This document shows positions 1 to 28,500 of a DNA stretch of 39,813 nucleotides, one piece after another (position 1 is the first letter of the stretch; every line of letters begins with the position of its first letter). Location: positions 1 through 39,813 of the forward strand of contig CAYFHS010000039.1 in the NCBI GenBank assembly GCA_964342815.1. Reading direction: 5' to 3'. Source of the DNA: an uncultured archaeon (GTDB lineage Archaea > Thermoplasmatota > Penumbrarchaeia > JASLWR01). Position numbers and translations under genes: made by a program. Below the pieces are notes generated by a model. That model did not search any database, was not told the origin of the DNA, and worked only from the letters and a program-made list of their open reading frames with translations.

Positions 1-256
1 CTTTACCAAGAAGTCAGTCCAAATGTTCCTGACTTTACGTGTAAAGACACACCTGTTGGCTTGTCAAACTTTCAAACCGGGCCAGTATTACCCGGCTTTT
101 CAAGTAACGATGAACATCAGGTGTCCTAGGCGGTTGAACTGGATCAACTAAGGGCAAAGGAGCTGACGGGAAAGGAAGGCTGATAGTACTGGGTGGGTGA
201 AAATGAAAGAGCTTATGGTGTTATCATGATCCAAGGGAAAGTAGCCCTGCTGATAT

Positions 257-303
257 CCGGGAAAATTATCCGATAACAGTCTTCTCCCGGAATAAATATA
301 TAA
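257..303 (+). promoter_or_regulatory. Nested inverted-repeat operator candidate and TATA box upstream of fprA
   Basis: CCGGGAAAA (257-265) and TTCTCCCGG (282-290) form an inverted repeat with 1 mismatch. It encloses TTATC-C-GATAA (266-276) and abuts ATAAATATATAA (292-303). Confidence 0.55.
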
Positions 304-354
304 GGGCGGTGTAATTATGAGTCTAATTCAAGAATTGAAAAAAGTGGTGATCAA

Positions 355-1545
355 ATGACGATCCAGGTAAAGAACAATGTATTTTGGGTAGGAAAAATTG
401 ATTGGGAATTGAGAAAATTTCACGGTAATGAATACACCACTCATCGTGGTTCTACTTATAATTCCTACCTGATCCGCGAGGAAAAGATTGCCCTCGTCGA
501 TACAGTGTGGTCGCCTTTCTCGAAGGAATTCGTCCAAAAACTATCAAGGGAGATCGATTTGGACAAAATTGATTTTGTGATCGCAAATCACGCGGAATCG
601 GACCACAGCGGTGGTCTTCCGGAACTTATGAAACATATCCCAGATACCCCAATATATTGCACTGCCAACGGTGTAAGATCACTGAAGGGGCATTACCATG
701 AAGATTGGAATTTTCATGCGGTAAAAACGGGAGATAAGATAAGTCTCGGTGAAAAAGGGTTGATATTCATACAAGCCCCAATGCTGCACTGGCCAGATAG
801 CATGTTCTGTTATCTGACGGGCGATAATATACTTTTTAGCAACGATGTTTTCGGCCAGCATTACGCTTCGGAGTATATGTTCAACGATCTCGTTGACCAA
901 TCTGAATTATTCACCGAATGCGTGAAATACTATGCCAATATCCTCACGCCGTTCAGCGGCTTCGTGGAAAAGAAGATAAAGGAAGTATTGTCATTCGGTC
1001 TGCCAGTCGATATTATCTGTACGAGTCACGGTGTGATCTGGCGAGACAATCCAACCCAGATCGTGGAAAGATATCTGGAATGGGCCAACGATTACAAGGA
1101 GAACCAGATCACGATTCTGTATGATACGATGTGGAACGGGACCCGTATCATGGCCGAAAACATTGCTCAGGGCATTCAACAAAACGATGACAAAGTGAAC
1201 GTAAAGCTATTTAACGTGGCGAAGGGTGACAAGAACGATATAATCACCGAAATATTCAAATCGAAGGGTATTCTGGTTGGTTCTCCTACGATAAACAAGG
1301 GAATTCTCACGGCAATCGCTTCCATTCTGGAAGAAATCAAAGGATTAAAATTCAAGGGAAAGAAGGCATCCGCTTTTGGATGCTATGGTTGGAGCGGGGA
1401 ATCTGTTAAAGCTATTTCGGAAATTTTGGCTGCTTCGGGATTCGACGTGGTTAACGACGGCTTGAAGGCATTGTGGAATCCCGACAGTGATAGTAGAGAG
1501 GAGTGTGTCAAATTCGGCAATAATATCGGTTCGTTATTCAAATAG
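355..1545 (+). CDS. fprA: Flavodiiron protein (FprA family; metallo-beta-lactamase domain + flavodoxin domain), O2/NO reductase-like
   Basis: Diiron ligand motifs NHAESDH, HWPDSM, NDVFG and SHG. Flavodoxin loops TMWNGT and GSPT, plus [19 protein letters not shown]. 396 aa. Confidence 0.93.
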
Positions 1546-1590
1546 TGAAGTGAAGAGGATTGATTGCATTCTACTGCGGAGAAGAAAGTA

Positions 1591-1629
1591 TTTTCCGGAA
1601 AATACCTTATATTTTACTTTCACCCGCCC
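1591..1629 (+). repeat. Boundary motif copy 1 (TTTTCCG-N16-TTACTTTCACCC), no TATA box at the expected position
   Basis: TTTTCCG starts at 1591 (within the perfect palindrome TTTTCCGGAAAA). TTACTTTCACCC starts at 1614, an offset of 23 as in the other copies. Confidence 0.7.
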
Positions 1630-1797
1630 TCCAAACACACCTTCAACAAATCCACAATTTCCAATATCGCCCCGGCGTACTTCGATAAGAGAACCCATTC
1701 ACCGGGGCGCCCTGATACCCAGAGGGAGTGGGGTAGGGATTGATAATATATTGTTGCAGATAGAAAAAGGTTGCTGTGTGGGAAGGGGGGCCGGAGA

Positions 1798-1896
1798 ATG
1801 GATGTGGTCATATGTGATCGTGATCATGTTACGGTATACAAAGTCGATATCGAGGGTCCGGAGAAGGCCGGTAGGGTCTACAAGCGTCAGAGATAG
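1798..1896 (+). CDS. Possible 32-aa small protein (MDVVICDRDHVTVYKVDIEGPEKAGRVYKRQR)
   Basis: GGAG immediately upstream of the ATG and a protein-like composition. It is below the ORF-track length cutoff and I recognise no family. Confidence 0.25.
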   Translation: MDVVICDRDHVTVYKVDIEGPEKAGRVYKRQR

Positions 1897-1963
1897 TGAT
1901 TCCGTCAAGTCTGCTCCTGCTGAATTTCTTCGCATCCCCGAGCCGATTGACTGGACATAATTA

Positions 1964-2020
1964 TTTTCCGAAAAAACTCTTTAACTTTACGTTTGCAGAC
2001 CTCTATTAACTCTTATATAT
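1964..2020 (+). promoter_or_regulatory. Boundary motif copy 2 with TATA box
   Basis: TTTTCCG at 1964, TTAC at 1987 (+23), TTATATAT at 2013, and ATG at 2042 (29 nt after the TATA start). Confidence 0.65.
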
Positions 2021-2041
2021 ATCTATCCCCTATGTTCATCC

Positions 2042-2146
2042 ATGGGCCGTTCTGCACCTATTTGTGTGATGGAATTTGGGAAATATGGGAGAATAATTTC
2101 TGGAAGAATCGCTTCTCAAGAAAGTTTTATATCTTTGATTAACTAA
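2042..2146 (+). pseudogene. 5' remnant of the small 'MGRS(V)P' helical-protein gene
   Basis: MGRSAPICVMEFGK versus MDRSVPTYRWEMEK and MGRSVPT*RWEMEK in the copies at 8454 and 4544. Promoter geometry is the same. The frame diverges and stops after 34 codons. Confidence 0.5.
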
Positions 2147-2156
2147 TATATTCATA

Positions 2157-2354
2157 ATGGGAAAGAGTGAAGTTGTCAGGATACTTCAAAATCACCCGCG
2201 GCAGTGGTTTACGGCAATAAAGATAAGCCGTGTAATCTATACTTCAAAAGTATCTGTTAGTAGATCATTGGGGAAGCTTAAACTGCAGGGAGTGGTGGAA
2301 GAACGGCGTAATCCTGAAGATACGTTCAAAGTTCAGTACAGGATTAAGCCATGA
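2157..2354 (+). CDS. Small winged helix-turn-helix protein, paralog 1
   Basis: MGKSEV..HPRQWFT..IS....SKVSVSRSL.KL, followed by a beta wing ending in YRI. TATA-like TTTTATAT at 2125-2132 suggests a leaderless transcript. Confidence 0.85.
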   Translation: MGKSEVVRILQNHPRQWFTAIKISRVIYTSKVSVSRSLGKLKLQGVVEERRNPEDTFKVQYRIKP

Positions 2355-2507
2355 TCGGTGTAGATGTAATCGGTCGCATCTGTGCGGTGACATATTTATT
2401 AGACTTCTCCAGGTTCATTTGATCCCTCCAAGAGATCGTCTGAATATTTTTGAAAAGAATATGATTTAGTGAAATATATATAATTGTGTTATATGATTGC
2501 TCTTGAG

Positions 2508-2705
2508 ATGGGGCAGGCTGAAGTTATTGAGTATTTCGAGAAACATCCCGATAAATGGCATACTTCTCTTGAAATTCGCCGGCAGATCGGGGGAACACAG
2601 AGTTCCGTGACAGCAGCGCTTAAGAAGTTACGGATGCTCGATCTCGTAGAATATCGAGAGATCCGAAATCCCCAAAAAATGTATCTCTACAAGTCCAAGA
2701 AGTGA
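2508..2705 (+). CDS. Small winged HTH protein, paralog 2
   Basis: MGQAEV..HPDKWHTS.EI...SVTAALKKL. Start placed at ATG 2508 by alignment with the paralogs. TATA box at ~2474-2482. Confidence 0.85.
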   Translation: MGQAEVIEYFEKHPDKWHTSLEIRRQIGGTQSSVTAALKKLRMLDLVEYREIRNPQKMYLYKSKK

Positions 2706-2711
2706 ATTTCT

Positions 2712-2936
2712 ATGGGACAATCGGACATTTTCGAATTCCTTGAGAAACATCCCGATAAGTGGTTTACTACAAGAGAGATTTCTAATGCGCTGGGGGTGTC
2801 TCAAGGTTCTGCAAGTGTTGCTCTTAGGGCCTTGCGTAAAAAGGAAGAGATTCGTTTTATGAAGAAAGACGATAGCGGAAAGCTGATTGTTTACAGTTTT
2901 AAGGAAGAAGCTAGTAGGCGAGGTGAAACGATATGA
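2712..2936 (+). CDS. Small winged HTH protein, paralog 3
   Basis: MGQSDI..HPDKWFTT.EIS..LGVSQGSASVAL..L. Its stop overlaps the next start (ATGA, 2933-2936). Confidence 0.87.
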   Translation: MGQSDIFEFLEKHPDKWFTTREISNALGVSQGSASVALRALRKKEEIRFMKKDDSGKLIVYSFKEEASRRGETI

Positions 2937-3286
2937 AGATATTACTTATTGTAAACGATGCTCCTTACGGGAACGAGAAATTATACAACGCACTACGGCT
3001 GGCTATGACCCTTCAAAGAGAACATGCAGCAGTTGAACTTAGGATGTTCTTGATGGCCGATTCCCTGGGTTCTGCTTTGACCGGTCAATCGACACCTAAT
3101 GGGTATTATAATATCGAAAGAATGATGAAAGCGGTAATTAAGGATGGCGGGCAGATTAAAGCATGTGGGTCCTGTGCAAGGGCTAGAGGGATCAAGCAGC
3201 TCGATATCATAGACGGCATTGAGATCAGCAATATGAAACAATTAACTCAATGGGTGGTTGACTCGGATAAGGTAATAAATTTCTGA
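2933..3286 (+). CDS. DsrE/DsrF-like (YchN-type) protein
   Basis: N-terminal ND-APYG-E...ALRLA, FLMAD, and a CGSCARARG Cys motif. GAGGTGA RBS. 117 aa. Confidence 0.88.
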   Translation: MKILLIVNDAPYGNEKLYNALRLAMTLQREHAAVELRMFLMADSLGSALTGQSTPNGYYNIERMMKAVIKDGGQIKACGSCARARGIKQLDIIDGIEISNMKQLTQWVVDSDKVINF

Positions 3287-3309
3287 AATAGTATGTTTTG
3301 GTGGTTCCC

Positions 3310-3507
3310 TTGGGCCAGGCCGAAGTTGTCGAATTCCTCAGAAATCATGCTGATTCATGGTTCACTTCAAAAGAGATATGGGAGAATATCAATATATCTC
3401 GAGCTGCCGTTGTGGAATCGTTGAGGAGGCTGAAACTGCAGGATGTGGTGGAAAAACGGCGGAACCCCGATGAAAGATACGGATTTCAGTACCGTCTACT
3501 GACTTGA
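3310..3507 (+). CDS. Small winged HTH protein, paralog 4 (TTG start)
   Basis: (M)GQAEVVEFL.NH..SWFTSKEI...ISRAAVVESL..LKLQDVVE. TTG at 3310 aligns with Met1 of the paralogs and is preceded by GTGGT. Confidence 0.83.
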   Translation: MGQAEVVEFLRNHADSWFTSKEIWENINISRAAVVESLRRLKLQDVVEKRRNPDERYGFQYRLLT

Positions 3508-3508
3508 T

Positions 3509-4381
3509 TTGTTCTCATATCATGAAATATTTGGAGGGATTTCCACGAGTGAAGAAACAAATAAGGCTCATATTAATCTTGATGCAATACAATATCATTT
3601 AGACGTTTCATTGGGTAAAGTTCTTCAATTAACATCTGTCGGTTTAAATGCTTCTCAAAATATCCTTGAAATATCACCTCCCTTCCCAGGTGTCACTTTT
3701 TCCATTGAGCCTCCGATCATTCTCTGGAAAGATTTACCTTCGATAAAAAAGGCTTTCAACAGATGGTTATTGATTAACGGTCTTAATGAGTTAATTGAAG
3801 CGGTAGGTTGGTCCTTGGAAGAAGTACGAAAAATTTGTGCCTTTATTTCCTTAAGTGAAGGAGGCATTATTTCAAAAGATATTGATGTAAATAATGAAAT
3901 ATTCGGCCCACTTAAAAAATTTCACAAATTTGGTCTACCCAATAAACTTGATTATCTTTCAGACAAATATGGAGTTAATATAATCCCAGAAAGTTCGGAA
4001 TGTCTTCGATCAATAAAAAAAGCCAGAAATTGTGTTGTCCATCGTAATGGAATTGTCTCCGATTTAGATACTAATTCTGGTGATGTTTTAATTGTCAAAT
4101 GGAAAACTCTAACAATATTTCGTACACAACCAGATGGTAAAGAAGTGGTTTTGGGTAATGAACCTCGTACTCTAAAAAACGGTACTGTTTCTGTTAGACC
4201 TGTTGAAAGTAAAAAGATATTCAAAAAAGGAGAGGAAATTACCTTTACAAACCAAGAATTTGTACATATATACCATACTTTGAGATTATGTATGATGGAC
4301 ATAATTAGTGAAGTTAAAAAGTATGCAAACTCAAAAGGCGTCCCTGAAAGAAATTCAAGAAAACAACAATCCAATGATTAA
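3509..4381 (+). CDS. Hypothetical protein with an RxxxxH (HEPN-like) motif; start uncertain
   Basis: KARNCVVHRNG (R at 4025, H at 4040) in a helical context. Visibly AT-rich. Begins 1 nt after the stop of HTH paralog 4. Confidence 0.7.
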   Translation: MFSYHEIFGGISTSEETNKAHINLDAIQYHLDVSLGKVLQLTSVGLNASQNILEISPPFPGVTFSIEPPIILWKDLPSIKKAFNRWLLINGLNELIEAVGWSLEEVRKICAFISLSEGGIISKDIDVNNEIFGPLKKFHKFGLPNKLDYLSDKYGVNIIPESSECLRSIKKARNCVVHRNGIVSDLDTNSGDVLIVKWKTLTIFRTQPDGKEVVLGNEPRTLKNGTVSVRPVESKKIFKKGEEITFTNQEFVHIYHTLRLCMMDIISEVKKYANSKGVPERNSRKQQSND

Positions 4382-4464
4382 GGTCATGTGCGCAGTATCC
4401 TGCAGACTGCAGGCCGATGGGCAGACCTCCACAAATCCCCGGGTGGATAGCCAAGAACCAATTA

Positions 4465-4522
4465 TTTTCCGAAAAAAATTCTCTATTTTACTTTTACCCA
4501 TCTCTAGATCACCCTTATATAT
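4465..4522 (+). promoter_or_regulatory. Boundary motif copy 3 with TATA box
   Basis: TTTTCCG at 4465, TTACTTTTACCC at 4488 (+23), TTATATAT at 4515, and ATG at 4544 (+29). Confidence 0.75.
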
Positions 4523-4543
4523 CCTAATTCCCTAATTTCTTCC

Positions 4544-4895
4544 ATGGGCAGATCCGTACCGACCTAAAGGTGGGAGATGGAGAAGGTTATCGGACGATGG
4601 GGGGTTTACCGCCGTGGATTGAATTCCGACAACCAGCGCTTGTTCGACAGGATGATAACAGGGCGCGGGTGGATGTGAGTGATGGATATTGCCAACGCTG
4701 TGAAATTCGAAGTTCACAGTTTGACAATGTTAGCGGTATCGTGTGCAAGCGCCAGATATCGCTGAATCCTTTCAATGCTACCATGATCCTGCGATGACGA
4801 TATTTCTATGCATCATGCTCGACCAGCTTGGGGAGCTTCGAGAGATGAAGAAGGAAGCGTGCAGAAGGATTTTCAAAGAGAATATGATTAAATGA
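4544..4895 (+). pseudogene. Pseudogene of the small helical 'MGRSVPTYR...FDR..N.AR.HADAA..Y...DP...FL.IML.Q' protein
   Basis: TAA replaces TAC at codon 8. There is a 1-nt deletion near 4657 relative to copy B and a hairpin insertion. The C-terminal frame is still open (DPAMTIFLCIMLDQLGELREMKKE). Confidence 0.8.
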
Positions 4896-4967
4896 AAAGT
4901 TTTCGAATCTTGTCCTAAAAACATTATATATTTTACATTTAGTATTATAAATCGAGGTGTCTATAAA

Positions 4968-7900
4968 ATGATAAATCTTAACGATAGAAAAACCGGCCTG
5001 TTATGCTATTTTGCGATATTTTCGTTTGTGATATTCCCTATCATATCAATAGGGATAGGAACTACCGAGGCACAAGGATTTGTTTCTGGTCCTCCGGATA
5101 ATAAAGTTGTTGTATACTACAGTTTTGATAACATTAACGATGTCGAAAATGATGACTCTGGAAAAGGTCTGGACATAGACCAGATCTCGGGAGCCATACA
5201 AACAGGTAATGGTCTACATGGAAGAAACCTATATTTTGACGGAGATGCCGATTTTACCAAAACAAATGCTGATCCTGATCTAAACATTGTTGAGGATATT
5301 ACTATTAGCGTATGGGTTTACTATATAAAACCTCCCTCTAGCGAAAAAAGAGCAACTATTGTTATGAAACAGGGTAATTTCCGGCTTCATATCAATAGTG
5401 AAGGTAATGATCAAGTGCGTTTTGAAAGTGGAAATGCAAACTGGGATTTTGTTCAAAGCTCTTCATCAATCCCTGAATATGAATGGACCCATATTGTTGC
5501 AACAAGGGATGGAGATGGATCTGTTGCAAATAGTATAAAGATTTTCATTAATGGGATAAGGGATGTCCAGGGCAGTATCAATCCAGATTCTACACCTAGT
5601 GGGGGCTTAACAAATGATATGTATATAGGTAGTTGGAAAGGCACAAAACATTATTTTCAGGGATATATAGATGAGGTACGTATCTCCGATGTTGTTCGAA
5701 AGGGAGGCGGAACTGTTGCATTCTGGAATTTCAATGAAGGATCGGGATCGTCTGTAAGAAATCGATCTCCCCAAAATATCCCCCGTGGGACGATTAGTGG
5801 TGCTTCATGGGGTACAGGGAAATATGGAAAAGCTCTTACTTTCGATGGCTCCAATGATTACGTCATAGTCGCACCGGAGGATAGTATGCATTTGACAGGG
5901 GATTTGACCATTGAAGCATGGGTCCGATATGATGCGGGAAGCGGTGGTGGGACCCGTGGTACCATCGTAGCTCAACCGGGTCATTTTCGATTTCATTATG
6001 ATAAATCTACGGGGAAAGTCCGTTTTGAAGGTGGCAATTCTCCGTGGTGGCCGATTGTTGAAAGCTCGATTGCATTACCAGATGATGTTTGGACCCATGT
6101 CGCCGTGACCCGAAGCGGAGATGGAGAAGGTAGTAACAGCGTAAAAATATATATTAACGGTATGTTGAATGTTCAAGGTGACACATATGAACCAACAGGT
6201 ACTTCGCCTAGTTATACTTATATTGGTAGTTGGAGTGGGACCAATCATTTTTTTAAAGGTCGAATTGACGAACTGAGGATATCAAATTATGTGAAAACCT
6301 TCGGTGCAACCAATGGGTATGGAGGAGACGTTTTACTGTTGCCTTTCGAAGGTGGATCATATAACGAAAGAAAGCAGGACCATTCGCCCCATAATAATCA
6401 TATTTCCTCAATATGTGGAAATCCAGATTATGGTAGTGGTTATGGTAAATATGGTGGTTGTCACGCATTTGATGGTATCGATGATTACCTGTACACTTCT
6501 CCCAACCTTGATCCCTCGATGAATCCTACAGCCATGCTATCAGTTGAAGCGTGGATACATCCATATAAATTGGAATTAGCCTGTATCGTCGATAATTCTA
6601 ATAGGGCGGCAGTTTATGGGGATCGAGGAGGTTTTATATTACGATTAAGGGAAGACGGCAAGATACAATTCTATTTCTACATTGACCATGATACTACAAA
6701 ATCGGTAACCAGTAATGTGGCTGTAACAACAAACAGGTGGTTTCACATCGCCGGAGTCTATGATGGTTACAATCTCAGGGTATACATAAATGGCGTCTGT
6801 GAGGGTATTACACCATATCAGGGGACAATTTTTTATGGGAAGGACTGGGGTTTATTTATTGGATGTGGTTACAAGGCAGATAAACAATGGTTTGAAGGGC
6901 TGATCGACGAAGTAAGGATTTCGAATTATCCGCGATCCTACCATGAGGATACTGATGGAGATGGTATGTCCGATATGTATGAAATTATGAGGAGTATAGA
7001 ATCAAATCAATACAATCCGATGGAACATAACGGTAGGTATGGATTACTAGTTGCACCAGTTCGAGAAAATGAGGATATTCAGTTTAAATATGATATCACC
7101 CAGATGCGTCATTATTTAAAAAGTATAGGTTGGAATGATGATGACATGATATTCCTAACTTGTGATACGGATCGAACTGGTTTAACTCTTGGAGACGAAT
7201 ATAACGGAGATTGGATTGATGGAGAAGCTTATCATGATAATTTAGATGGATCTGCACAGCACGATACTGCCTTTGACGCTTTTAAAAATGGTGGAGCATA
7301 TAAACTCCAGGATTCCAACGGCAACTGGAATTCTTTTTTCTTTTCTAAAATAACGAATAAAGATATTTTTTTGTTATATCTGAGAAATCACGGAGGTTTA
7401 AAAAATAATAATTATATTTTTGGTACTTATTCCCATAATAACTATGGAGCTAATGAAAACGATTATTGGACTGCAACGGATCTTGATACCCGATTAGATA
7501 ACGACGTTGATTGTAAGTACATGGCATGTGTCCTCGACTTTTGTGATTCCGGTATGTATAGGTATAGTCTTACTGGTGATAGACGTCTAATTGTTACTTC
7601 CACGTCTTATACTATCAGCGGCAGTTATAAATACCTATTTTACGGCAGAATTCGCGGCGATGTTAATGTACATTACGCTGTATTTGATGACGATGCATCT
7701 ATGACCGACCAAATCATATGTGAGGAAAAGCATTGGACCGATCTTGATGGAGATGGGCGAATTGACGTGTATTATAATTATAATTATCAAGAATACCAAG
7801 ATGATGGTGATCGAATATTTGAACCCGATACGGACGATACTCTAATCGGAAATCAAATAGGACAAAGTTTAAGGGAAAATAAATACGATCACTATCCACC

Positions 7901-8108
7901 ATTCGATGGAAATGAAGAAATTAATAATGCTGATGGAATCTCTGGAGTAAATGGTAATCGAGATAGAGAAGATAGCATTTATTATCGAGATAAATTCATA
8001 TCAATTCAAGAAGCACATTATATGGGTAATGTCGTGTGCTACGACAGGGGTGGGGGGGAACCACAGATTTCAAAGGGGATTCAAATACCATCGCAACTCT
8101 ATCTGTAA
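4968..8108 (+). CDS. Secreted protein: signal peptide + 3 LamG-like jellyroll domains + DTDGDG Ca-binding motif + C-terminal caspase/legumain-fold (clan CD, C13-like) peptidase
   Basis: Three repeats of W.H...T/Y.G....IYING...G.IDE(V/L)RIS. DTDGDGMSDMYE motif. Catalytic-type LRNHGG (H808) and VLDFCDSG (C859). GAGGTG RBS. No C-terminal TM helix. Confidence 0.82.
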   Translation: MINLNDRKTGLLCYFAIFSFVIFPIISIGIGTTEAQGFVSGPPDNKVVVYYSFDNINDVENDDSGKGLDIDQISGAIQTGNGLHGRNLYFDGDADFTKTNADPDLNIVEDITISVWVYYIKPPSSEKRATIVMKQGNFRLHINSEGNDQVRFESGNANWDFVQSSSSIPEYEWTHIVATRDGDGSVANSIKIFINGIRDVQGSINPDSTPSGGLTNDMYIGSWKGTKHYFQGYIDEVRISDVVRKGGGTVAFWNFNEGSGSSVRNRSPQNIPRGTISGASWGTGKYGKALTFDGSNDYVIVAPEDSMHLTGDLTIEAWVRYDAGSGGGTRGTIVAQPGHFRFHYDKSTGKVRFEGGNSPWWPIVESSIALPDDVWTHVAVTRSGDGEGSNSVKIYINGMLNVQGDTYEPTGTSPSYTYIGSWSGTNHFFKGRIDELRISNYVKTFGATNGYGGDVLLLPFEGGSYNERKQDHSPHNNHISSICGNPDYGSGYGKYGGCHAFDGIDDYLYTSPNLDPSMNPTAMLSVEAWIHPYKLELACIVDNSNRAAVYGDRGGFILRLREDGKIQFYFYIDHDTTKSVTSNVAVTTNRWFHIAGVYDGYNLRVYINGVCEGITPYQGTIFYGKDWGLFIGCGYKADKQWFEGLIDEVRISNYPRSYHEDTDGDGMSDMYEIMRSIESNQYNPMEHNGRYGLLVAPVRENEDIQFKYDITQMRHYLKSIGWNDDDMIFLTCDTDRTGLTLGDEYNGDWIDGEAYHDNLDGSAQHDTAFDAFKNGGAYKLQDSNGNWNSFFFSKITNKDIFLLYLRNHGGLKNNNYIFGTYSHNNYGANENDYWTATDLDTRLDNDVDCKYMACVLDFCDSGMYRYSLTGDRRLIVTSTSYTISGSYKYLFYGRIRGDVNVHYAVFDDDASMTDQIICEEKHWTDLDGDGRIDVYYNYNYQEYQDDGDRIFEPDTDDTLIGNQIGQSLRENKYDHYPPFDGNEEINNADGISGVNGNRDREDSIYYRDKFISIQEAHYMGNVVCYDRGGGEPQISKGIQIPSQLYL

Positions 8109-8374
8109 TAGAAAAATAATCCCTTAGATACATAAACGGATTATATCCTGTTTATAGTCCCTCGCCTCACTATAGCAGATCGACTCATATAAAAGGCCCA
8201 AAGAATCTTGAGCTTCGAGTCTTTTTTTTTCTTTTTTTTACATAAGCTTCCGTTCGTCTTTTCAACGGTGAGAATTCAGGCGAAGCCATTTCCGGAACCC
8301 GTTTGATCAGTACTGTTGTCTTTCCTGGAAATTTCTCGGGAAGATATGATGCCCAAAGGGCGCTCCTTTTGTTA

Positions 8375-8432
8375 TTTTCCGATATATTTATCAACCCTTA
8401 CTTTCACCCACCCTTTCAATGCCGTTATATAT
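8375..8432 (+). promoter_or_regulatory. Boundary motif copy 4 with TATA box
   Basis: TTTTCCG at 8375, TTACTTTCACCC at 8398 (+23), TTATATAT at 8425, and ATG at 8454 (+29). Confidence 0.75.
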
Positions 8433-8453
8433 TTTCATCTACTATTTTCTTTT

Positions 8454-8816
8454 ATGGACAGATCCGTACCGACTTACAGGTGGGAGATGGAGAAGGTTAT
8501 CGGACGATGGGGCATTTACCGCCGTCGATTGAATTCCGACAACCAGCGCTTGTTCGACAGGATAATGAACAGGGCGCGGGCGCATGCGAGTGATGGATAT
8601 TGTCAACGGTGTGAAGTTCGAAGATAATTCGAAATTCACAGCTTGGCAATGTTCGCGGTATCGTGTGCAAACGCAGATGCCGCAGAATCCTATCAATGTA
8701 ACCATGATCCTGCTATGACGATATTTCTCAGTATAATGCTCGATCAGGTGAGTGAGTTATGAGGAATGAAGATGGAAGTGTGCAGTAGGATTTTCAAAGA
8801 GAATATGATTGAATAA
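8454..8816 (+). pseudogene. Second interrupted copy of the small helical protein gene
   Basis: One frame reads MDRSVPTYRWEMEKVIGRWGIYRRRLNSDNQRLFDRIMNRARAHA-[insert containing TAA at 8625]-DAAESYQCNHDPAMTIFLSIMLDQVSEL*GMKME. The TGA at 8760 corresponds to CGA in copy A. Confidence 0.8.
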
Positions 8817-8888
8817 AAGGTTTTCGAATGTTGTCCTAAAAACAATATATATTTTACAGTTAGTATAATAAATCGAGGTGTATATAAT

Positions 8889-11800
8889 ATGATGAATCTA
8901 AACGATAGAAAAACCGGTTTATTTTGCGTTGTTGCGACTATCTCGTTGCTGTTATCACCGATTATATCGATAGGGATAAAAAAAACCGAAGGACAAGGGC
9001 TTATTGGAGCTCTTTCGGATAATAAAGTTGTTTTATATTATAGTTTTGATAATATGGATAATGTCGGAAAGGACGACTCCGGAAAAGGCCGGGACATAAA
9101 CTTGGTATCGGGAGCTAAACAAACAGGTAATGGTCTTTACGGAGGAAATCTGTATTTTAATGGTGAAAGTGATTACACAATGACAAATGCTCATAGTAGT
9201 TTTCATATCACTGAAGACCTTACGATAGAAGCCTGGGTGAATTATGAAGATGGAGATGGAGTAGGCGGATCAAGAGGTACTATTGTAATGGAGAAAGGAC
9301 ATTTTCGCCTTCATATAAGCAAGGATAATGATAAAGTGCGTTTTGAAAGTGGAAACCCATATTGGGATTATGTTCAAAGCCATTCATCAATTCCTGAAAA
9401 TGAATGGACCCATATTGCTGTAACTAGGGATGGAGATGGAACTGATTCTGATAGTATAAAGATTTATATTAATGGGATGTTGGATGTTCATGGTGAGATA
9501 AATGAATATTCAAAACCAGATGGTACCTCTGAAGATGCAATTTATATCGGTAGCTGGGAAGGATATAATCATTTTTTTCCGGGATATATCGATGAAGTAC
9601 GTATATCCAATGTTGTTCGAGAGGTAGGCGGAACCATTGCATTCTGGAATTTCAATGAGGGAGCTGGAAATGTTGTTCGAAACAGGTCTCCAATAGGTGA
9701 CTATATTGTTGGGCAGCTTAGAAATATGGATGATAATGATTGGGTATCCGGAAGGTATGGAACGGGATTAGAATTTGATGGCTTAAATGACTATGTAGAT
9801 GTAGGTGCCCATTATATACTTAGGCCTGATATTATTACTGTGGAAACTTGGATTTATCCAACGGCTACTGGTCATCAATATATCATTGATGGTGCGGATC
9901 ACCTTTCCAGTCCGAAAGGGGGTTATTTCTTAAGAATTCAAGATGATAATGAGATTGAATTCAGGATATATACCTCTGGGAGTACCCACGTTAGTGTTAC
10001 TAGTACAACAACAATTAGTGCTAATAATTGGTACCAAATAGCCGGTATATTTGATGGATCGACACTTGCATTGTATGTTAATGGCGTGTGTGAGGATACT
10101 GTCTCGTATAGCGGTTCGATCCATTATGAGCAATATGTTGGGATGCATATAGGCTCTAACGTGGATCCATATAGATTTTTTCAAGGTATAATTGACGAAG
10201 TTAGGATATCGAATTATGGTAAACAATTCCGTTTTGATGATGGAAATGCATTGGGCACCGATCAAGGAGATTACGGTGCCGACGTATTATACTTACCGTT
10301 TGAGGGTACTGATCTCAATGGTGATGAAGATGATGGTATTCTTGATGATAAAACTCCGTATGACAACGATATTACTTATTCCACTGGAGTGGACATTACA
10401 AATGGCAAATACGGCGGTGGCCTTTATTTTGATGGCCATAGCGATTTTATTCAGCGTTCTACACTTCCAGATTCCCTCGAACCCGACGTTATATCAGTAG
10501 AAGCCTGGATTTATCCGAAGGCTACGGGTCATCAATATATCATTGATGCTGCAGATCACATTTATAGTTCATACGGGGGTTATTTTTTAAGAATAAAAGA
10601 TGATAATAAGATTGAATTCAGAATATATACCACGTGGGGTAATTCAAATGTATTTAGTACCACACAAATTGAGATCAATAATTGGTATCACATAGCTGGT
10701 GTCTATGATGGATATGCATTAAGATTGTATATAAATCGCATCTGTGAGGATATTGTATTAATTGATGAGAATATGAAATATTCATATGATTATGGATTGA
10801 ATATTGGGCGCTCTAACGGTAATTGTAGATTTTTTAAAGGTATAATTGACGAAGTCAGAATCTCTAATTATCCAAGGTCTTTTCATGAAGACACCGATGG
10901 AGATGGAATGTCCGATATGTATGAGATAATGAGGTCTGTGAATTCAAATCAATATAATCCAAAAGAGCATAATGGAAGACATTCTGTATTGATGTGCTGG
11001 GATGATGAAGATAATTCCAATGCTTTTTGGAAAGCTCTTACATTTACTTATTCTTCACTGAAAGCACTTGGATACCATGATGAAGACATACGAGTGCTAA
11101 ACAAGAATGATCCCCCGTCTTCAGGGACTTATGCGGACATTGTAGATGATATTATCAATGATAATTCCATTGAAACTGCTATGAATGAGATCAATTCAAT
11201 ATCTACATCCTCTGATTTCATTTTCATATATGGTACAGATCATGGTTACGTGAAGGATGATTATACTCAATCATTTATTAAGTGGGATGATAATAATTTT
11301 TACTACGATGACGATTTAGCAAATGACGTGAACCGAATATCAAATTACAGAACCATGGTAATCTTATTGGATTATTGCTATGCCGCAGGATTTATGGATG
11401 ACCTCAGCGATATAAATGAAGATAGAGTAATAATGACAGCTTCACCGTATAATTTAGGAGGTTGGATGAAAAGTAATGGTATACAATACCTTACAAATAG
11501 CTTCATAGGGGCTCTATCATACCGTAACTTTTATGCAGATAAAATTAATGCGGACACCGATATATACGGTTTAGAAGATGGGTTTGTTTCAGTTTCGGAG
11601 GCATATAATTATGCTTTTGACAAGGCTCTCGATGATAATCCAAAAAATTATTACATGTATGATGACAATGGAATAGACTTAGATATATCGGATGTTGCAG
11701 ATAACTCTGCACTTTATAATCCAACAGATATACATTCGGAAGAGATTCCCAATGAACCCCCAATCGAAGAACCATTATACGACGTTGTTGGGAATAAGTA

Positions 11801-11942
11801 TTACTGGGATACTGTATGGGAAACCGATCACAGACCTAATATATTAAGTAATTATATAGATGGGCCGGGTTATCATGGAACTGTTGGAATTGGGTTTACT
11901 TCATGGGATGAAGGTGAACTGGGTGCAAGAACATACCTATAA
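8889..11942 (+). CDS. Secreted protein: signal peptide + 3 LamG domains + DTDGDG motif + clan CD (C13/legumain-like) peptidase; paralog of 4968-8108
   Basis: Same layout as the paralog. Catalytic-type YGTDHG (H785) and LLDYCYAAGF (C830). GAGGTG RBS. Confidence 0.83.
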   Translation: MMNLNDRKTGLFCVVATISLLLSPIISIGIKKTEGQGLIGALSDNKVVLYYSFDNMDNVGKDDSGKGRDINLVSGAKQTGNGLYGGNLYFNGESDYTMTNAHSSFHITEDLTIEAWVNYEDGDGVGGSRGTIVMEKGHFRLHISKDNDKVRFESGNPYWDYVQSHSSIPENEWTHIAVTRDGDGTDSDSIKIYINGMLDVHGEINEYSKPDGTSEDAIYIGSWEGYNHFFPGYIDEVRISNVVREVGGTIAFWNFNEGAGNVVRNRSPIGDYIVGQLRNMDDNDWVSGRYGTGLEFDGLNDYVDVGAHYILRPDIITVETWIYPTATGHQYIIDGADHLSSPKGGYFLRIQDDNEIEFRIYTSGSTHVSVTSTTTISANNWYQIAGIFDGSTLALYVNGVCEDTVSYSGSIHYEQYVGMHIGSNVDPYRFFQGIIDEVRISNYGKQFRFDDGNALGTDQGDYGADVLYLPFEGTDLNGDEDDGILDDKTPYDNDITYSTGVDITNGKYGGGLYFDGHSDFIQRSTLPDSLEPDVISVEAWIYPKATGHQYIIDAADHIYSSYGGYFLRIKDDNKIEFRIYTTWGNSNVFSTTQIEINNWYHIAGVYDGYALRLYINRICEDIVLIDENMKYSYDYGLNIGRSNGNCRFFKGIIDEVRISNYPRSFHEDTDGDGMSDMYEIMRSVNSNQYNPKEHNGRHSVLMCWDDEDNSNAFWKALTFTYSSLKALGYHDEDIRVLNKNDPPSSGTYADIVDDIINDNSIETAMNEINSISTSSDFIFIYGTDHGYVKDDYTQSFIKWDDNNFYYDDDLANDVNRISNYRTMVILLDYCYAAGFMDDLSDINEDRVIMTASPYNLGGWMKSNGIQYLTNSFIGALSYRNFYADKINADTDIYGLEDGFVSVSEAYNYAFDKALDDNPKNYYMYDDNGIDLDISDVADNSALYNPTDIHSEEIPNEPPIEEPLYDVVGNKYYWDTVWETDHRPNILSNYIDGPGYHGTVGIGFTSWDEGELGARTYL

Positions 11943-12019
11943 GAAAAACCGCGAGATTCACAACAACATCAACTAATGCAAATAAGGATTGAAAACGGGA
12001 TCACAGTAAATCTGGTTGA

Positions 12020-12077
12020 TTATCCGGTTTTTCACTAAATCTTTACTTTCACTCACCTTTTGTGAAACAATATAATG
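12020..12077 (+). repeat. Boundary motif copy 5 (degenerate)
   Basis: TTATCCG at 12020, TTACTTTCACTC at 12043 (+23), and AATATAAT at 12069. Confidence 0.6.
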
Positions 12078-12545
12078 ACCCTCTCCATCCTTCCTTTTCA
12101 CTATCCCCGTGATGGCTCGTAGACCCTCAAGGCTTTCGCCGCCCCCTGGCTGTGGGTCGTTTCATCACAGAGGACGGGCCGTTTCGGGGATAGTTGTTTT
12201 TTGTAACTGTGTACGTGGACCCCGCAGAGCTTATCAAAGTCTGCCCGGAATGTTATTTTCTCATTCAAAATCCGGGTTCTTATCAGGTCTCTCCTTGAGC
12301 GGGTAGTATGCTCTTACTGTAGCGATGAATATCTTGTATCCGCTGCGGTTGAGTTGGATTCACATTGGATAACAGGACTGAGTTTGGAATAGAAGGCTGG
12401 AAATGTCAGTTGGGTGAGGATAGAGAAAGGTATGTGGGGATTGAGGTTGAAGAAAATGGCGCCCGCTATGATCTACATGTGAACGGGATAAGGAATCCAA
12501 GGGGATAAATGAGGTAGAGAACTGTGAAAACGAAAAATAACAAAG

Positions 12546-12619
12546 CGGGCCCGAGGGGATTCGAACCCCCGGCCGATCGGTTAAGAGCCGATCGCTCTAC
12601 CTAGCTGAGCTACGGGCCC
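12546..12619 (-). tRNA. tRNA-Lys (anticodon CTT), 74 nt, intronless, CCA not encoded
   Basis: Reverse complement GGGCCCGTAGCTCAGCTAGGTAGAGCGATCGGCTCTTAACCGATCGGCCGGGGGTTCGAATCCCCTCGGGCCCG folds as a cloverleaf. Anticodon loop is CTCTTAA and the T-loop is TTCGAAT. Confidence 0.97.
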
Positions 12620-12703
12620 ACAAGCTTGAGCGAAGCGAGTGGTTGTGGGCCCGTCAGTTGTATCCGAAGGCATACTTGCCGAGGATGCAACGCTACGGGC
12701 CCA
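12609..12703. repeat. 12-bp direct repeat of the tRNA 5' end bracketing a 71-bp structured element
   Basis: GCTACGGGCCCA occurs at 12609-12620 and 12692-12703. ACGGGCCCACAA (12612-12623) and TTGTGGGCCCGT (12643-12654) form an internal inverted repeat. A second hairpin spans 12657-12691. Confidence 0.8.
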
Positions 12704-13042
12704 TTACGAGTGAATGAAAGAGAATGAATACTCATCTCTACATACACCCAAAGTCCGCCGTGGGTAGTGAAATTTCCATAAATAAACCTATTGGTGAATT
12801 TGAATCATAGATATTCCGCAGAATCGGTTCCTACGGACTCCCACTTCGCTCTGTTGTATCTTCGACACAACTGAGCCTTCGATTTCCTCCAGAAATCTAC
12901 AGGCTTCGATTCTGCTAACATTATCAAATATACAAACATCGACTTTTTGTCGAAGTTTGCTCATTTGACAATATACGAGCATAGCTCACTTACTGACCAA
13001 TATGCAAGAAGAAATTAATATCAAATCCATCATAGTCCCGGT

Positions 13043-14137
13043 ATGGATACCGGCGAGAATATCCGCGGTAATGAATACGCCGATGTTACCTTTCTTGAAG
13101 TGGGAAAAGAGTATGCGGAGCCTGTCCGGCGGAAATTGTTACAGGAAAATATTCTCCGTTTCGACTCTTCGATCATAACTAAGGGCGATATGGTATGTTT
13201 TCCCATCTATAAGGGAATTCCCGAGGAACAATTATTTTCGGTACTGCGCCTATATTCTCGTAACTTCTCTATTTCAGTGAGCCGCGTTCTCCTCAAACCG
13301 AAAAAGATCAACAGCTTTCGCGACCTTATCGACATCCCGGAAGAATTTCTTGAATTTCTACCGTCATCATGGGACGTCGTGGGTGATATTATTTTCGTAA
13401 AGCTGTCTGACGAAATACTTTCATTCAAAACCAAAATTTCCCAAGCCCTTCTCGCAGCGCACGGGAACATCCGCTCAGTATACTGGGTAAAAAAAATATC
13501 GGGTGACTGCCGGATCAGGGAGTTGGAGCACATCGGCGGGGATGAAAATACAGTGACCGCGGCCAAGGAGTTCGGAATAATTATGAACCTCGACGTGGCG
13601 AAAGTATACTACAGCCCAAGGCTTGCCACGGAGCGGTGGAGGATCGCCCAACAGGTAAGCGAGGGTGAATTGGTTCTCGATATGTTTACCGGGATCGGTC
13701 CTTTTTCCCTTGTCATTTCTCGTCATGCACGGCCGTCATCCATCCATTCCATAGATATCAATCCCGAAGCAATCCGTTATCTGGAAACGAATATCAAGCT
13801 TAACCGTATCGAAAATATAGAATATCATCTCGGAGATGCTGTGGAAATATGCAAATCGCTTTCCGATCTATACAAATTCGATAGGATCATAATGAATCTG
13901 CCCCACAGCTCTTTGGATTTTTTCGAGATAGCACTCGCCTGCTCGAAAATACAAACGAAGATTCATCTCTACGTGATCCGTGAGCTGAGCAGTATCGACG
14001 ATATGGTTGATGATTGTATAGCAAGTGCCGGAAAACAAGGCTGCCAAATTAGTGAAAAAGCCCGGGTAACCGTAAGAAGCTATTCACCGTCAGAGGCCAA
14101 TGTCTGCGTTGATTTTTCAGTGGACGATATTCGCTAA
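13043..14137 (+). CDS. trm5: tRNA (guanine37-N1)-methyltransferase, Trm5/Met-10+ family
   Basis: SWDVVGDI, YYSPRLATER, SAM-binding DMFTGIGPF, DINP and IMNLP motifs, with an N-terminal D1-like domain. Confidence 0.88.
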   Translation: MDTGENIRGNEYADVTFLEVGKEYAEPVRRKLLQENILRFDSSIITKGDMVCFPIYKGIPEEQLFSVLRLYSRNFSISVSRVLLKPKKINSFRDLIDIPEEFLEFLPSSWDVVGDIIFVKLSDEILSFKTKISQALLAAHGNIRSVYWVKKISGDCRIRELEHIGGDENTVTAAKEFGIIMNLDVAKVYYSPRLATERWRIAQQVSEGELVLDMFTGIGPFSLVISRHARPSSIHSIDINPEAIRYLETNIKLNRIENIEYHLGDAVEICKSLSDLYKFDRIIMNLPHSSLDFFEIALACSKIQTKIHLYVIRELSSIDDMVDDCIASAGKQGCQISEKARVTVRSYSPSEANVCVDFSVDDIR

Positions 14138-25517: not shown

Positions 25518-28500
25518 ATGGTAATGAAACAAAAGAAAAACGTTTTTATCGTATGGTTTGCAGTAATGCTATTCAGTCAGGGGTTGATAGGTGCTGACCT
25601 GTTTTTTCCGGGAGGTATTACACCTACCTTCTCAGCTAGAGGAGCCAACATTATCGTGGATGATGACGGGCAGCGGGATTACGCCAGCATTCAATCAGCC
25701 ATCAATAATGCCGTGGAAGGAGATGTCCTGTATGTACACGCTGGGACTTATAACGAGCACATAGTCGTGAACAAAGCTCTTACAATTATCGGTAACGGCA
25801 GTTCTGACACCATCGTCAGCGGTGGGGGAACAGGGGACGTCCTGAGGGTAACTGCCAGCTGGGTGAACATTACCGGCCTCCGGTTAATAAACAGCGGATC
25901 AAACTCCAATGACGGGGGACTCGAGTTGGATAGCGCGGATCATTGCCGGATCACGTATAATTCGATGACTAACAATCAACAAGGTATTCGCCTTATTTCA
26001 GCCGATGATAATTTCATAGCCAATAACCAGGCTGATTCCAATACTCTCTACGGTCTCTACCTATCCTCCTCCACCAACAATACCATCGACAAGAATTCTT
26101 TCAAGTCGAACAACGATGACGGGATCCGTTTGTCGGGATCACAATATAATGTAATATCGAATAATACGTGCGTCTCGAATATGGAGAAGGGAATCCACCT
26201 CTATCCGCCAGAATCTCTCTATACTGTCATAAAAAACAACACCATATCCGGTAACGACTACGGTATATACATGTCATCAGGTGAAAACACTGTTACGGGC
26301 AATACCATTAATTCCAATACCAACTATGGTGTCAATATCTATGCGGGTGACAGTAATTATATTCATCATAACAACTTTATAGCCAATAACGGTACCGGGG
26401 TGCAGGTATACGATGACGGTACGGGCTCGGGATTGAATGATACTATTGGTGAAGGGAACTACTGGTCGGATTATACGGGCAGGTATCCCGGAGCTTCTTA
26501 TGTGGTGAAGGTGTGGAATGTCCCTTACGGGGCATGGGGAGGTGCGGCAAATGTCGATTATTATCCACTTGTCCGACCATTGAATCTTGATGAGGACAAC
26601 AGTCCCACCACCGGGACAACGGGCGACCCGTTCGTTTTCGATATTTGGACTTCGGATATCATCGATATCGGAGGCGTCATGATCTCATGGAGCCACGGCG
26701 GTAAAGGGGGAAATAACGCTACGGTGGATGACGGTGACGGGACCTGGAGCCTTACAATTTTCCTGGACCACAGCCTTGCTGATATGACCTATACTGTTCA
26801 GGTGAACGATACATTCGGTGGTAATTTCAGAGAACTTCCAAGGAAGGTTACTGTAACGGATAACGATATTCCAGGGATAGTCAGCGACGATTCGCCAGTC
26901 CAGGGGACAACGGGCGACGTTTATGCTTTCGATCTGACCCCTTGGGACAATATCGGGGTTGGCAGTCTCAACGTAAGTTGGCAGCACGTGAACCTTGGTG
27001 GTAATCTTCCTCTTAATAATGATGGGGACGGAACCTGGAGTCAAACGGTGGTCCTGGGTCATTCCATGACTCCCATGACGTATTCAGTCCAGGTGAACGA
27101 TAGTTCGGGAAACCTGTATCGGCAAGCTACGCGAACCGTGGTTTTGACTGACAACGATAATCCCACCATCGAGGATGATAATTCCGATCAGGCCGGCACC
27201 ACCGGAGATCCATTTGATTTCAATATCAGTACATCAGATAATATTAATACGAATTCGGTATATGTGAACTGGGTCCATGGTAATCGACACGGGAATTTTT
27301 CGTTGGAAAGGGACGGTGATTATTGGCGGGGCACCATCGTGCTGGACCATAATATCGGTGATCTGAATTATATCGTCTGTATCAACGACTCCTCCAACAA
27401 CTATGATGTCGGGCCGCTGCGGAACGCTCCCGTCACTGATAACGATAGACCCGAATTCGGAACCCTTTGGAACAGTGAACTGGCCACGGGACGATCCGTT
27501 CTCTTTTCGGCGAATATCACCGAAAATATTGGTTTTCAGGACATAGCTTTCAATTTCTCGATAAACGGCGGTCCTCGTGTAAACTGGTCGGTCAGTAACC
27601 ATACCGGCAGTTCATGGTACCTACCCATTCCAATACCGGAGAACGCGTTTTCCATTGAATATTATTACTGGGTGCGGGATACCTCCGGAAACGTGAATCG
27701 CACCGGAAATGTCCAAAGGTCCGTGGCAGACAGGGACCGGCCAACGTTGGGACTTCCATTCCATAAACCCGGAACCACCGGGGACCCCATGGAGTTTTCC
27801 ATCAACGTGGACGACAACATTGCCGTCAGTGAAGTATACCTGTTTTATACCGTTGAAGAAGATTCCTACAATATTTCCGTTCTACACGATGTGGATACCA
27901 GGTGGAACGTTACCATAATCGCACCGGAAAATCACACTGCTTTCAGCTATCATTTCTCAGCAAAGGATACCTCGAACAACTGGAACAGGACCAATACGCG
28001 CAATGTCTTGATCGTGGATAATGATGCACCTTATCTGATAAGGGATCTAACTGTGGGAAAACCGTCCACGGGGGACCCATTCAACATTATCGCAGGTGCC
28101 GGTGACAACATAAAGATAATGGAGATGTGGTTGGTGTATAATTTCGATGGAATATCAAACACCTATGTAAAGATGGGGCTTGGGGCTGATGGAACCTGGT
28201 CAAGGGAGATACCGGTTCCCGACGACGCGCTGTTGTTAAAATATAAATTCGATATGGAGGATAAAGCGAAAAACAGCTATATCACCAATGAAACATCATT
28301 GAACGTACTTGACAACGACCCCGCTGAGTTTACGGATGAGACCGTGGGGACGCCCAGAACTGGAGAAGAGTTCACCGTTGCGGTGAATGTGACTGACAAT
28401 GTCGGTCCGGTATCTGTGATCTTGAACTACATGCACAATGAAAACCAATTCACAAGCTCAATGCAGCGCACCAGGGGTAATACCTGGAAACTTCCCATAA

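Follow-up and report, generated by a model that had tools for sequence, protein, structure and literature searches.

The stretch of DNA described here, called the window, is a contig of 39,813 nucleotides (C39) from an uncultured archaeon of the phylum Thermoplasmatota. Close to its tRNA-Lys gene it carries five copies of a bipartite repeat, in which two short boxes are held at a fixed distance from each other. The five repeats are most probably paralogous copies of one archaeal promoter module, which would have been spread by segmental duplication within an acquired island. The half of the module closer to the gene, the proximal box, also precedes genes of DNA replication, recombination and repair elsewhere in the genome, and it is kept at orthologous promoters. 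A first-pass annotation, made from the letters of the window alone, had offered two explanations of the repeat: a regulator-bound promoter element that was copied again and again, or a recombination site used to stack gene cassettes beside the tRNA gene. The promoter anatomy of the copies, together with the position of the proximal box before repair genes and its conservation at orthologous promoters, speaks for the former.

The whole assembly (G000) comprises 4.35 Mb in 116 contigs and has a GC content of 45%. It was compared with a genome of the same genus (G001) and with genomes of two other genera of the same family (G002 and G003). A search for mcrA in the assembly, which is 89% complete, was negative, and by this search the organism is not a methanogen.

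Occurrence of the bipartite motif

The pattern TTWTCCG-N16-TTAC has five exact matches in the window, at positions 1591, 1964, 4465, 8375 and 12020, all on the plus strand and all where the first-pass annotation had placed them. Shuffled sequences give 0.09 matches for a window of this size, and none of 100 shuffles reached five. The start-to-start spacing of 23 nucleotides between the two halves is exact in every copy. When the copies are aligned, the invariant blocks ATT.TCCG and TTAC.TT..C are separated by diverged spacers, and in four of the five the second half continues as TTACTTT(C/T)AC(C/T)C, again as reported earlier. There are nine matches to the pattern in the whole 4.35-Mb genome, of which the four outside the window lie in unrelated context. 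A position-weight scan of the kind proposed in the first-pass annotation separates the five copies, with scores of 34-40, from everything else, which scores 27 or less.

The bipartite pattern was not found in G001-G003. Among 185,579 species genomes it occurs as seven single hits in unrelated bacteria, which is the chance level, and among metagenome contigs as ten single chance hits without similarity to G000. The proximal 18-mer had no match in viral contigs. When the literature was searched for the literal motif, the only results were primers and unrelated sequences.

Promoter anatomy of the five copies

Counted from the predicted start, the module has a distal box, ATT(T/A)TCCG, near -80, and a proximal box, TTACTTTCAC(Y)C, which extends from about -57 to -40 and abuts the BRE/TATA region. 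In copies 2, 3 and 4 the TATA element TTATATAT starts at 2013, 4515 and 8425, that is 26-27 nucleotides past TTAC, and an ATG follows 29 nucleotides further on. This arrangement can be read directly from the sequence and agrees with the earlier description of three such copies. With the TATA element centred about 26 nucleotides upstream, the predicted transcript start coincides with the A of the ATG at 2042, 4544 and 8454, and a leaderless message is thus predicted for copies 2-4. A TATA element at a fixed distance and a single orientation toward the start are what is expected of an archaeal TBP/TFB promoter; copy 1 is the exception in its TATA element.

The copies differ in how well the individual elements are preserved. 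Copy 1 (1590-1632, plus strand) has the distal box ATTTTCCG at 1590-1597, here forming the palindrome TTTTCCGGAAAA, and the proximal box TTACTTTCACCCGCC from 1614. Copy 2 (1963-2044, plus strand) has its distal box at 1963-1970, a degenerate proximal box TTACGTTTGC at 1987-1996, TATA at 2013-2020 and its ATG at 2042, on the predicted transcript start. Copy 3 (4464-4546, plus strand) is made up of the distal box at 4464-4471, the proximal box TTACTTTTACCC at 4488-4499, TATA at 4515-4522 and ATG at 4544, and copy 4 (8374-8456, plus strand) of the distal box at 8374-8381, the proximal box TTACTTTCACCCACCC at 8398-8413, TATA at 8425-8432 and ATG at 8454. Copy 5 (12019-12076, plus strand) carries the distal box ATTATCCG at 12019-12026, the proximal box TTACTTTCACTCACC at 12043-12057 and the TATA-like sequence AATATAAT at 12069-12076.

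In copy 5 the predicted start falls on a candidate RNA and not on an ATG. The sequence AATATAAT predicts a transcript start at about 12100, which is the first base of the closing stem of an RNA candidate at 12100-12204 (plus strand). This RNA would be about 95 nucleotides long, closed by a stem of 10 base pairs (12100-12109 with 12185-12194) and followed by a T-run. Its predicted fold, at -49.6 kcal/mol (z = -4.4), is more stable than each of 200 shuffles. No homolog was found in 30 relatives or elsewhere in G000.

Copy 1 is followed by a hairpin-rich element at 1656-1770, which has two paralogs in the genome, at C56:10246-10359 and C2:1669-1759. All three contain a conserved GC-rich hairpin, CGCCCCGG...CCGGGGCG, then GCCCTGATACCCAGAGGGAG and the TATA-like TGATAATATATTG. 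The C2 paralog also lies behind a TTACTTTCAC box, and in front of the C56 paralog stands a degenerate form of the bipartite motif, TCTTTCCGG-N15-TTACACATCTCAC. The element was not found in the 30 relatives. In an Rfam search of region 1-13200 (E <= 1) the tRNA-Lys alone was matched; neither the RNA behind copy 1 nor that behind copy 5 had a hit.

The proximal box as a genome-wide promoter element

In its full form the proximal box reads TTACTTTCAC(Y)(S)ACC followed by a C-tract; it spans 19-20 nucleotides and lies just upstream of TATA. The core TTACTTTCAC occurs 52 times in G000, where about 11.5 occurrences are expected. A 16-mer of the box, TTACTTTCACYCACCC, is present 15 times in G000 and nine times in G001, and once each in the G002 and G003 genera and in two genomes that are more distantly related. 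The reversed 16-mer, used as a control, is absent from every genome. Of the 24 strongest sites, nearly all lead into a C-tract and then, 26-31 nucleotides from TTAC, into a TATA element, and they are aimed at a downstream open reading frame (ORF).

About 15 distinct gene families stand behind the strong sites. Six of them are radA, a radB-like gene, rpa, mcm, xseA and a XerA-type recombinase gene, recognized by Pfam matches to Rad51/RadA, RadB-like, RPA/SSB-type, MCM, exonuclease VII large subunit and tyrosine recombinase families. The association with repair is given by this list of genes behind strong sites, not by a formal genome-wide enrichment statistic, for which a full annotation would be needed. 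The RPA-type protein has its strongest NCBIfam matches to SSB and replication-factor-A models, all below the curated cutoff. The recombinase, encoded at C7:140280-141561 with the box just upstream of its TATA element, scores 222 bits against the NCBIfam XerA equivalog (cutoff 220), and integron-integrase models also score well. Another member, a protein of 359 amino acids and unknown function, has no sequence match in the PDB and none in NCBIfam.

The box has been retained at orthologous promoters. It is found at radA in G001, G002 and G003, at mcm in G001 and G003, and at the recombinase promoter in G001 (C142) and G003 (C186), with a partial version in G002. In G001 it is also kept at the promoters of rpa, the radB-like gene, xseA and four genes of unknown function. 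In two genomes of other families, neither radA nor mcm was seen to have the box. The proximal box is thus a candidate for a lineage-specific cis-regulatory element that serves a regulon of replication, recombination and repair genes.

A further group behind the box is a basic, winged-helix-like family of about 150 amino acids, with about 11 diverged copies of about 70% DNA identity in G000. They include C1:221852-222313, C1:287475-287882 and C11:46628-47089, as well as loci on C3, C5, C9, C14, C15, C30 and C33. Each copy lies behind tandem TTACTTTCAC boxes 43 nucleotides apart and a conserved leader, GAACATTTGTCCATCAG...GGGATTTCCGTTGCC. There are 11 matches to the family in G000, two in G001 and eight in G003, and none in G002 or in other families. 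An AlphaFold model of this protein was poor (predicted local distance difference test, pLDDT, 50) and was not used.

The distal box

The distal box ATTTTCCG, when placed at exactly 23 nucleotides start-to-start from TTAC, is confined to the island. It is preserved between the two tandem units that begin at copies 3 and 4, while the 16-nucleotide spacer next to it is only about 25% identical; that the box has survived where the spacer is randomized speaks for constraint. At 6 of 19 other regulon promoters, and in 7.7% of control windows, there is a looser distal element, WTWT-N0-2-CGR, 22-31 nucleotides upstream of TTAC. The radA, radB-like and recombinase promoters are among those that carry it.

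The small gene behind copies 2-4

The first-pass annotation regarded the copies as separators of unrelated cargo. Different gene blocks do lie between the copies, but directly behind copies 2-4 there are homologous relics of one small gene. This gene belongs to a class-wide family of proteins of about 91-96 amino acids that begin with MGR(S/T)VPT(Y/F)R and carry no annotation. Searches of the Pfam and NCBIfam libraries used here gave no match to the family; its precomputed label is PF26485. Of 31 related genomes, 24 have homologs of the 57-residue ORF at 8454-8627, most often a single one, and an 87%-identical homolog comes from a metagenome-assembled genome labelled Candidatus Thalassarchaeaceae.

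The resident copy of the gene (C2:2797-3069, minus strand) and its G001 ortholog both sit behind the proximal box. In this genome family the resident gene lies behind the box after a leader with a hairpin plus T-run and a 35-residue ORF. In G008 and G010 the small gene directly follows another ORF, which in G008 is a weak Pfam match to Rad51 (RadB-like).

All three relics in the island are on the plus strand. Behind copy 2 there is an N-terminal piece (MGRSAP...) at 2042-2142 and a C-terminal relic (..IFEKNMI*) at about 2443-2469, and the first winged-helix gene, 2157-2354, sits between the two. The copy-3 paralog (4544-4895) is dead, with a TAA at codon 8 and a frame change. The copy-4 paralog (8454-8816) is full length in one frame with two in-frame stops, and is broken by a palindromic multi-copy element of 90 nucleotides (30 codons) at 8594-8683, its first open stretch being the 57-residue ORF mentioned above. 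As judged from these alignments, the repeated unit is a promoter plus a small regulon gene.

The palindromic element itself is about 65-90 nucleotides long and occurs a second time in the window at 12907-12974. There are about 15-20 copies in G000 and dozens in relatives; it is present at many sites in G000, G001 and G003, with matches in both orientations, and one of the copies is found past the resident small gene on C2. The element resembles a miniature inverted-repeat transposable element (MITE) or a repetitive extragenic palindromic (REP) sequence more than a one-off insertion.

The acquired island and its tandem duplication

Copies 3 and 4 each open one unit of a tandem duplication (4464-12019, plus strand), the units being 4464-8373 and 8374-12019. 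Each unit is composed of the promoter, a small-gene relic and a LamG/C13-peptidase gene, and the two are 78-90% identical in blocks. The earlier claim that a 3.9-kb duplication begins at the motif is borne out by this comparison. Similarity is contiguous from TTAC (4488 and 8398), upstream of which just the ATTTTCCG box is shared, and after the LamG genes no similarity between the units is left. Among the gene products, Pfam confirmed an FprA-like flavodiiron protein, DsrE, four small winged-helix proteins (encoded at 2157-2354, 2484-2705, 2712-2936 and 3298-3507) and two LamG proteins, of which one also matches a C13 peptidase; the protein that the first-pass annotation had called HEPN has no Pfam match.

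The tRNA-Lys gene (CTT anticodon, 12545-12619, minus strand) is syntenic in G001 together with a gene for a Trm5/TYW2-type methyltransferase (13043-14137). On C44 of G001 a MATE-type gene, about 150 nucleotides, the tRNA-Lys gene and trm5 are adjacent. In G000 the left side of this synteny is found at C1:323639-342845, with the MATE gene at the end of C1, which stops at 343106. Thus, at least 12.2 kb of extra DNA precede the tRNA-Lys gene in G000 and are absent at the G001 site. A direct repeat of 58 nucleotides is present in the window at 12208-12265 (plus strand) and at C1:342851-342907, 84% identical overall and in 36 of the first 38 nucleotides. It has no other copies in the genome, and its C1 copy lies just past the gene that neighbors tRNA-Lys in G001. 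The pair are candidate attL/attR-like boundaries of the island. GC content at 2-12 kb of the window is 35-41%, below the 45% of the whole genome and the 45-51% of the DNA to the right. As judged by the flanking synteny in G001, the 58-nucleotide repeats and the low GC content, the region is an acquired island that spans at least 12.2 kb, has att-like flanks and holds all five copies, in agreement with the tRNA-adjacent island first described.

No integrase was found in the assembled part of the island; the gap between C1 and C39 is unassembled, as both contig ends are multi-copy repeats. Partial copies of tRNA-Lys that might act as att sites were not found. The alignment of the 58-nucleotide repeat with the G001 spacer as a possible empty site is suggestive, not above shuffles.

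A possible mechanism and the alternatives to it

By combining these observations it is possible to describe how the module may have arisen and how it might work. The copies would have spread by segmental duplication inside the horizontally acquired, AT-rich island beside tRNA-Lys. Copies 2-4 would have been copied along with paralogs of the small regulon gene, which later decayed, and their promoters may still feed transcription into the genes downstream. A DNA-binding protein would dock on the proximal box. As this site lies just upstream of BRE/TATA and not over it, the protein is more likely an activator than a repressor, an assignment that draws on known archaeal regulators. Such a regulator would couple the genes behind the box to DNA damage or to the replication cycle. 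The distal box would be a second protein-binding site, occupied by the same regulator or by one of the four winged-helix mini-proteins of the island.

Several points weigh against this interpretation. There is no good TATA element in copy 1 at the expected +26/27, the proximal box of copy 2 has three mismatches in TTACTTTCAC, and the island copies mostly lack the long C-tract of the housekeeping promoters. Since the genes directly behind copies 2-4 are truncated or dead, their promoters may be in decay as well. The enrichment of the looser distal element is suggestive, because its pattern was chosen post hoc. Two candidates for the regulator were considered and set aside. The family of about 150 amino acids is unlikely to be the master regulator, since it was not found in G002, where radA keeps the box. 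An autoregulated Orc1/Cdc6 protein would be expected to have the box before its own gene, and neither of the two Cdc6_C genes has it.

A stronger version of the promoter reading may be entertained tentatively. The box would then be the operator of an undescribed SOS-like regulon for DNA damage or replication in this uncultured and non-methanogenic family, comprising radA, rpa, mcm, xseA and the integron-type recombinase, into which the island has wired five promoters, adding a distal operator of its own. Were this so, the distal operator might be read by the winged-helix mini-proteins of the island, and its small RNAs, regulators and secreted LamG peptidases would be switched on with the host repair response. 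The copies would on the contrary be functionless if they were relics, that is, promoters of a duplicated and dead small gene that are recognizable as the duplications are still young. The broken state of the small-gene copies behind copies 2-4 (stops, a frame change, the 90-nucleotide insertion), together with the defects of copies 1 and 2 just mentioned, is what such decay would produce. This is nevertheless unlikely, for the units of copies 3 and 4 keep both boxes and TATA letter for letter while the spacer and the DNA past the LamG genes have lost their similarity, as is expected under selection; the 23-nucleotide spacing is exact in all copies; and the start predicted for copy 5 is where a stable RNA fold begins. 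Even less weight is given to the idea that the promoters also act as homology patches, the tandem LamG duplication being made by unequal crossing-over with no dedicated recombinase. The layout of copy, unit, copy, unit, copy is indeed the product of unequal exchange between flanking repeats, but the chimera predicted by such an event is not seen, as the sequences in front of copies 4 and 5 show no meaningful similarity. The copies now have about 20 conserved bases in common, too few for homologous exchange, so any event of this kind must be old.

The reading of the copies as attC-like sites, used by a tyrosine or serine recombinase to stack cassettes by the tRNA-Lys gene, is very improbable. 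It would account for copies that sit between functionally different blocks, for a 3.9-kb duplication that starts at a copy and for the absence of the island from the relative of the same genus, and a gene for an integron-type tyrosine recombinase is indeed present in the genome, on C7, accompanied by attC-like repeats. These repeats (CTCCTTGGCCCTAACGGGCACGCATAACTA, 30 nucleotides) have nine copies, at C7:143401 and 144653 just downstream of the recombinase gene, at C14:101999-108574, C42:18946, C47:20562 and C69:191. They are, however, unrelated to the window motif and absent from C39 with up to seven substitutions allowed. The window copies do not form the hairpins of such sites: the DNA folds of the five have energies of -0.6 to -3.3 kcal/mol (z from -1.5 to +0.5), and a small palindrome is present in copy 1 only. 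Every copy points into TATA and a start at fixed distances, and the proximal half is a housekeeping promoter box at orthologous positions in three genera. The bipartite pattern is missing from G001-G003 and has chance single matches in public collections. G001 lacks the whole island rather than individual modules. The first-pass annotation had noted that no recombinase is present in the window, and none was found among the window ORFs scanned, a set without two large ones (25518-30545 and 33848-38329). The motif is essentially an ordinary promoter of the small-gene family, an outcome that the first-pass annotation had named as speaking against its proposal. The repeats are thus not a new recombination system for stacking cassettes, and a false lead is removed.

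Comparison with known systems

To our knowledge, almost nothing is known outside the Sulfolobales about how archaea coordinate their repair and replication genes. No paper describing a control element of this sort in the present lineage was found, and concept searches found Sulfolobales work only.

In the SOS system of bacteria a LexA box precedes recA, ssb and uvr genes as well as genes of prophages and of integron integrases. The box described here is similar in that one operator-like sequence stands before radA, rpa, an integron-type recombinase gene and genes of acquired DNA. It differs in belonging to an archaeal TBP/TFB promoter, in which a site upstream of TATA suggests activation and not occlusion of the LexA type. 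The box on the recombinase promoter recalls the SOS control of bacterial integron integrases; such control of intI is said to have been described by Guerin et al. in 2009.

Upstream activating sequences in archaea reportedly include that of GvpE in haloarchaeal gas-vesicle promoters and the sites of Ptr2. The present module resembles them in lying directly upstream of BRE/TATA, and some promoters here are bipartite or tandem, with boxes 43 nucleotides apart; its sequence and its regulon are unrelated to theirs. With integron attC sites and cassette arrays, including those of archaeal integrons, the copies have in common that they are same-orientation repeats between gene blocks in a variable region. 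Unlike attC arrays, they have no hairpin and no adjacent integrase among the ORFs scanned, and the repeats hold TATA and a start.

The closest archaeal comparison is the DNA-damage-responsive element (DDRE) of the Sulfolobales, 5'-ANTTTC-3' with the 20-bp consensus AATAGTTTCRGWDTACTCWS, which is bound by the Orc1/Cdc6 paralog Orc1-2 (PMC6061795; PMC5817253). The highly UV-induced genes of Sulfolobus include upsA, upsE, tfb3 and cedA1 (PMC6061795), and another study reports that repair genes did not rise in expression in the Sulfolobus response to ultraviolet light (PMC2246294). The two elements are alike in being short, near the core promoter and common to archaeal genes linked to DNA damage, a link that is putative in the present case. 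The proximal box contains ACTTTC, which fits ANTTTC, but five specified bases are too short to count as evidence, since chance alone will often produce a hexamer with one free position; the 20-bp consensus is otherwise unaligned, and the box is longer, TTACTTTCACYSACC plus a C-tract. The Sulfolobales belong to another phylum, and the set here consists of the repair and replication genes radA, rpa, mcm and xseA. The two Orc1/Cdc6 genes of G000, as mentioned above, do not themselves carry the box.

A box kept across three genera would define a concrete and testable regulon, and could be used as bait for finding its regulator. Bacterial prophages and integrons tap the repair signalling of their hosts. 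That the box stands at the promoter of an integron-type recombinase gene and at five places in an acquired island suggests that archaeal mobile elements may do the same.

Repeats at the contig end and around the tRNA gene

Positions 1-110 of the window consist of a tandem repeat with a unit of 65 nucleotides, CTTTACGTGTAAAGCCGTCCCATTCTGG...AAATGTTCCTGA, so that C39 begins inside the array. Short arrays of this unit are present at many loci and contig ends (C3, C8, C27, C54, C79 and others), and another copy follows a gene of the family of about 150 amino acids on C11. A clustered regularly interspaced short palindromic repeat (CRISPR) array was ruled out, as the units are near-identical.

To the right of the tRNA-Lys gene, a multi-copy element of about 165 nucleotides (12813-12976) contains the second palindromic element of the window and a 64-residue ORF on the minus strand. 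It is absent from the orthologous G001 site, where 21 nucleotides correspond to 171 here. The segment at 12635-12753 is also longer than its counterpart in G001, by about 60 nucleotides.

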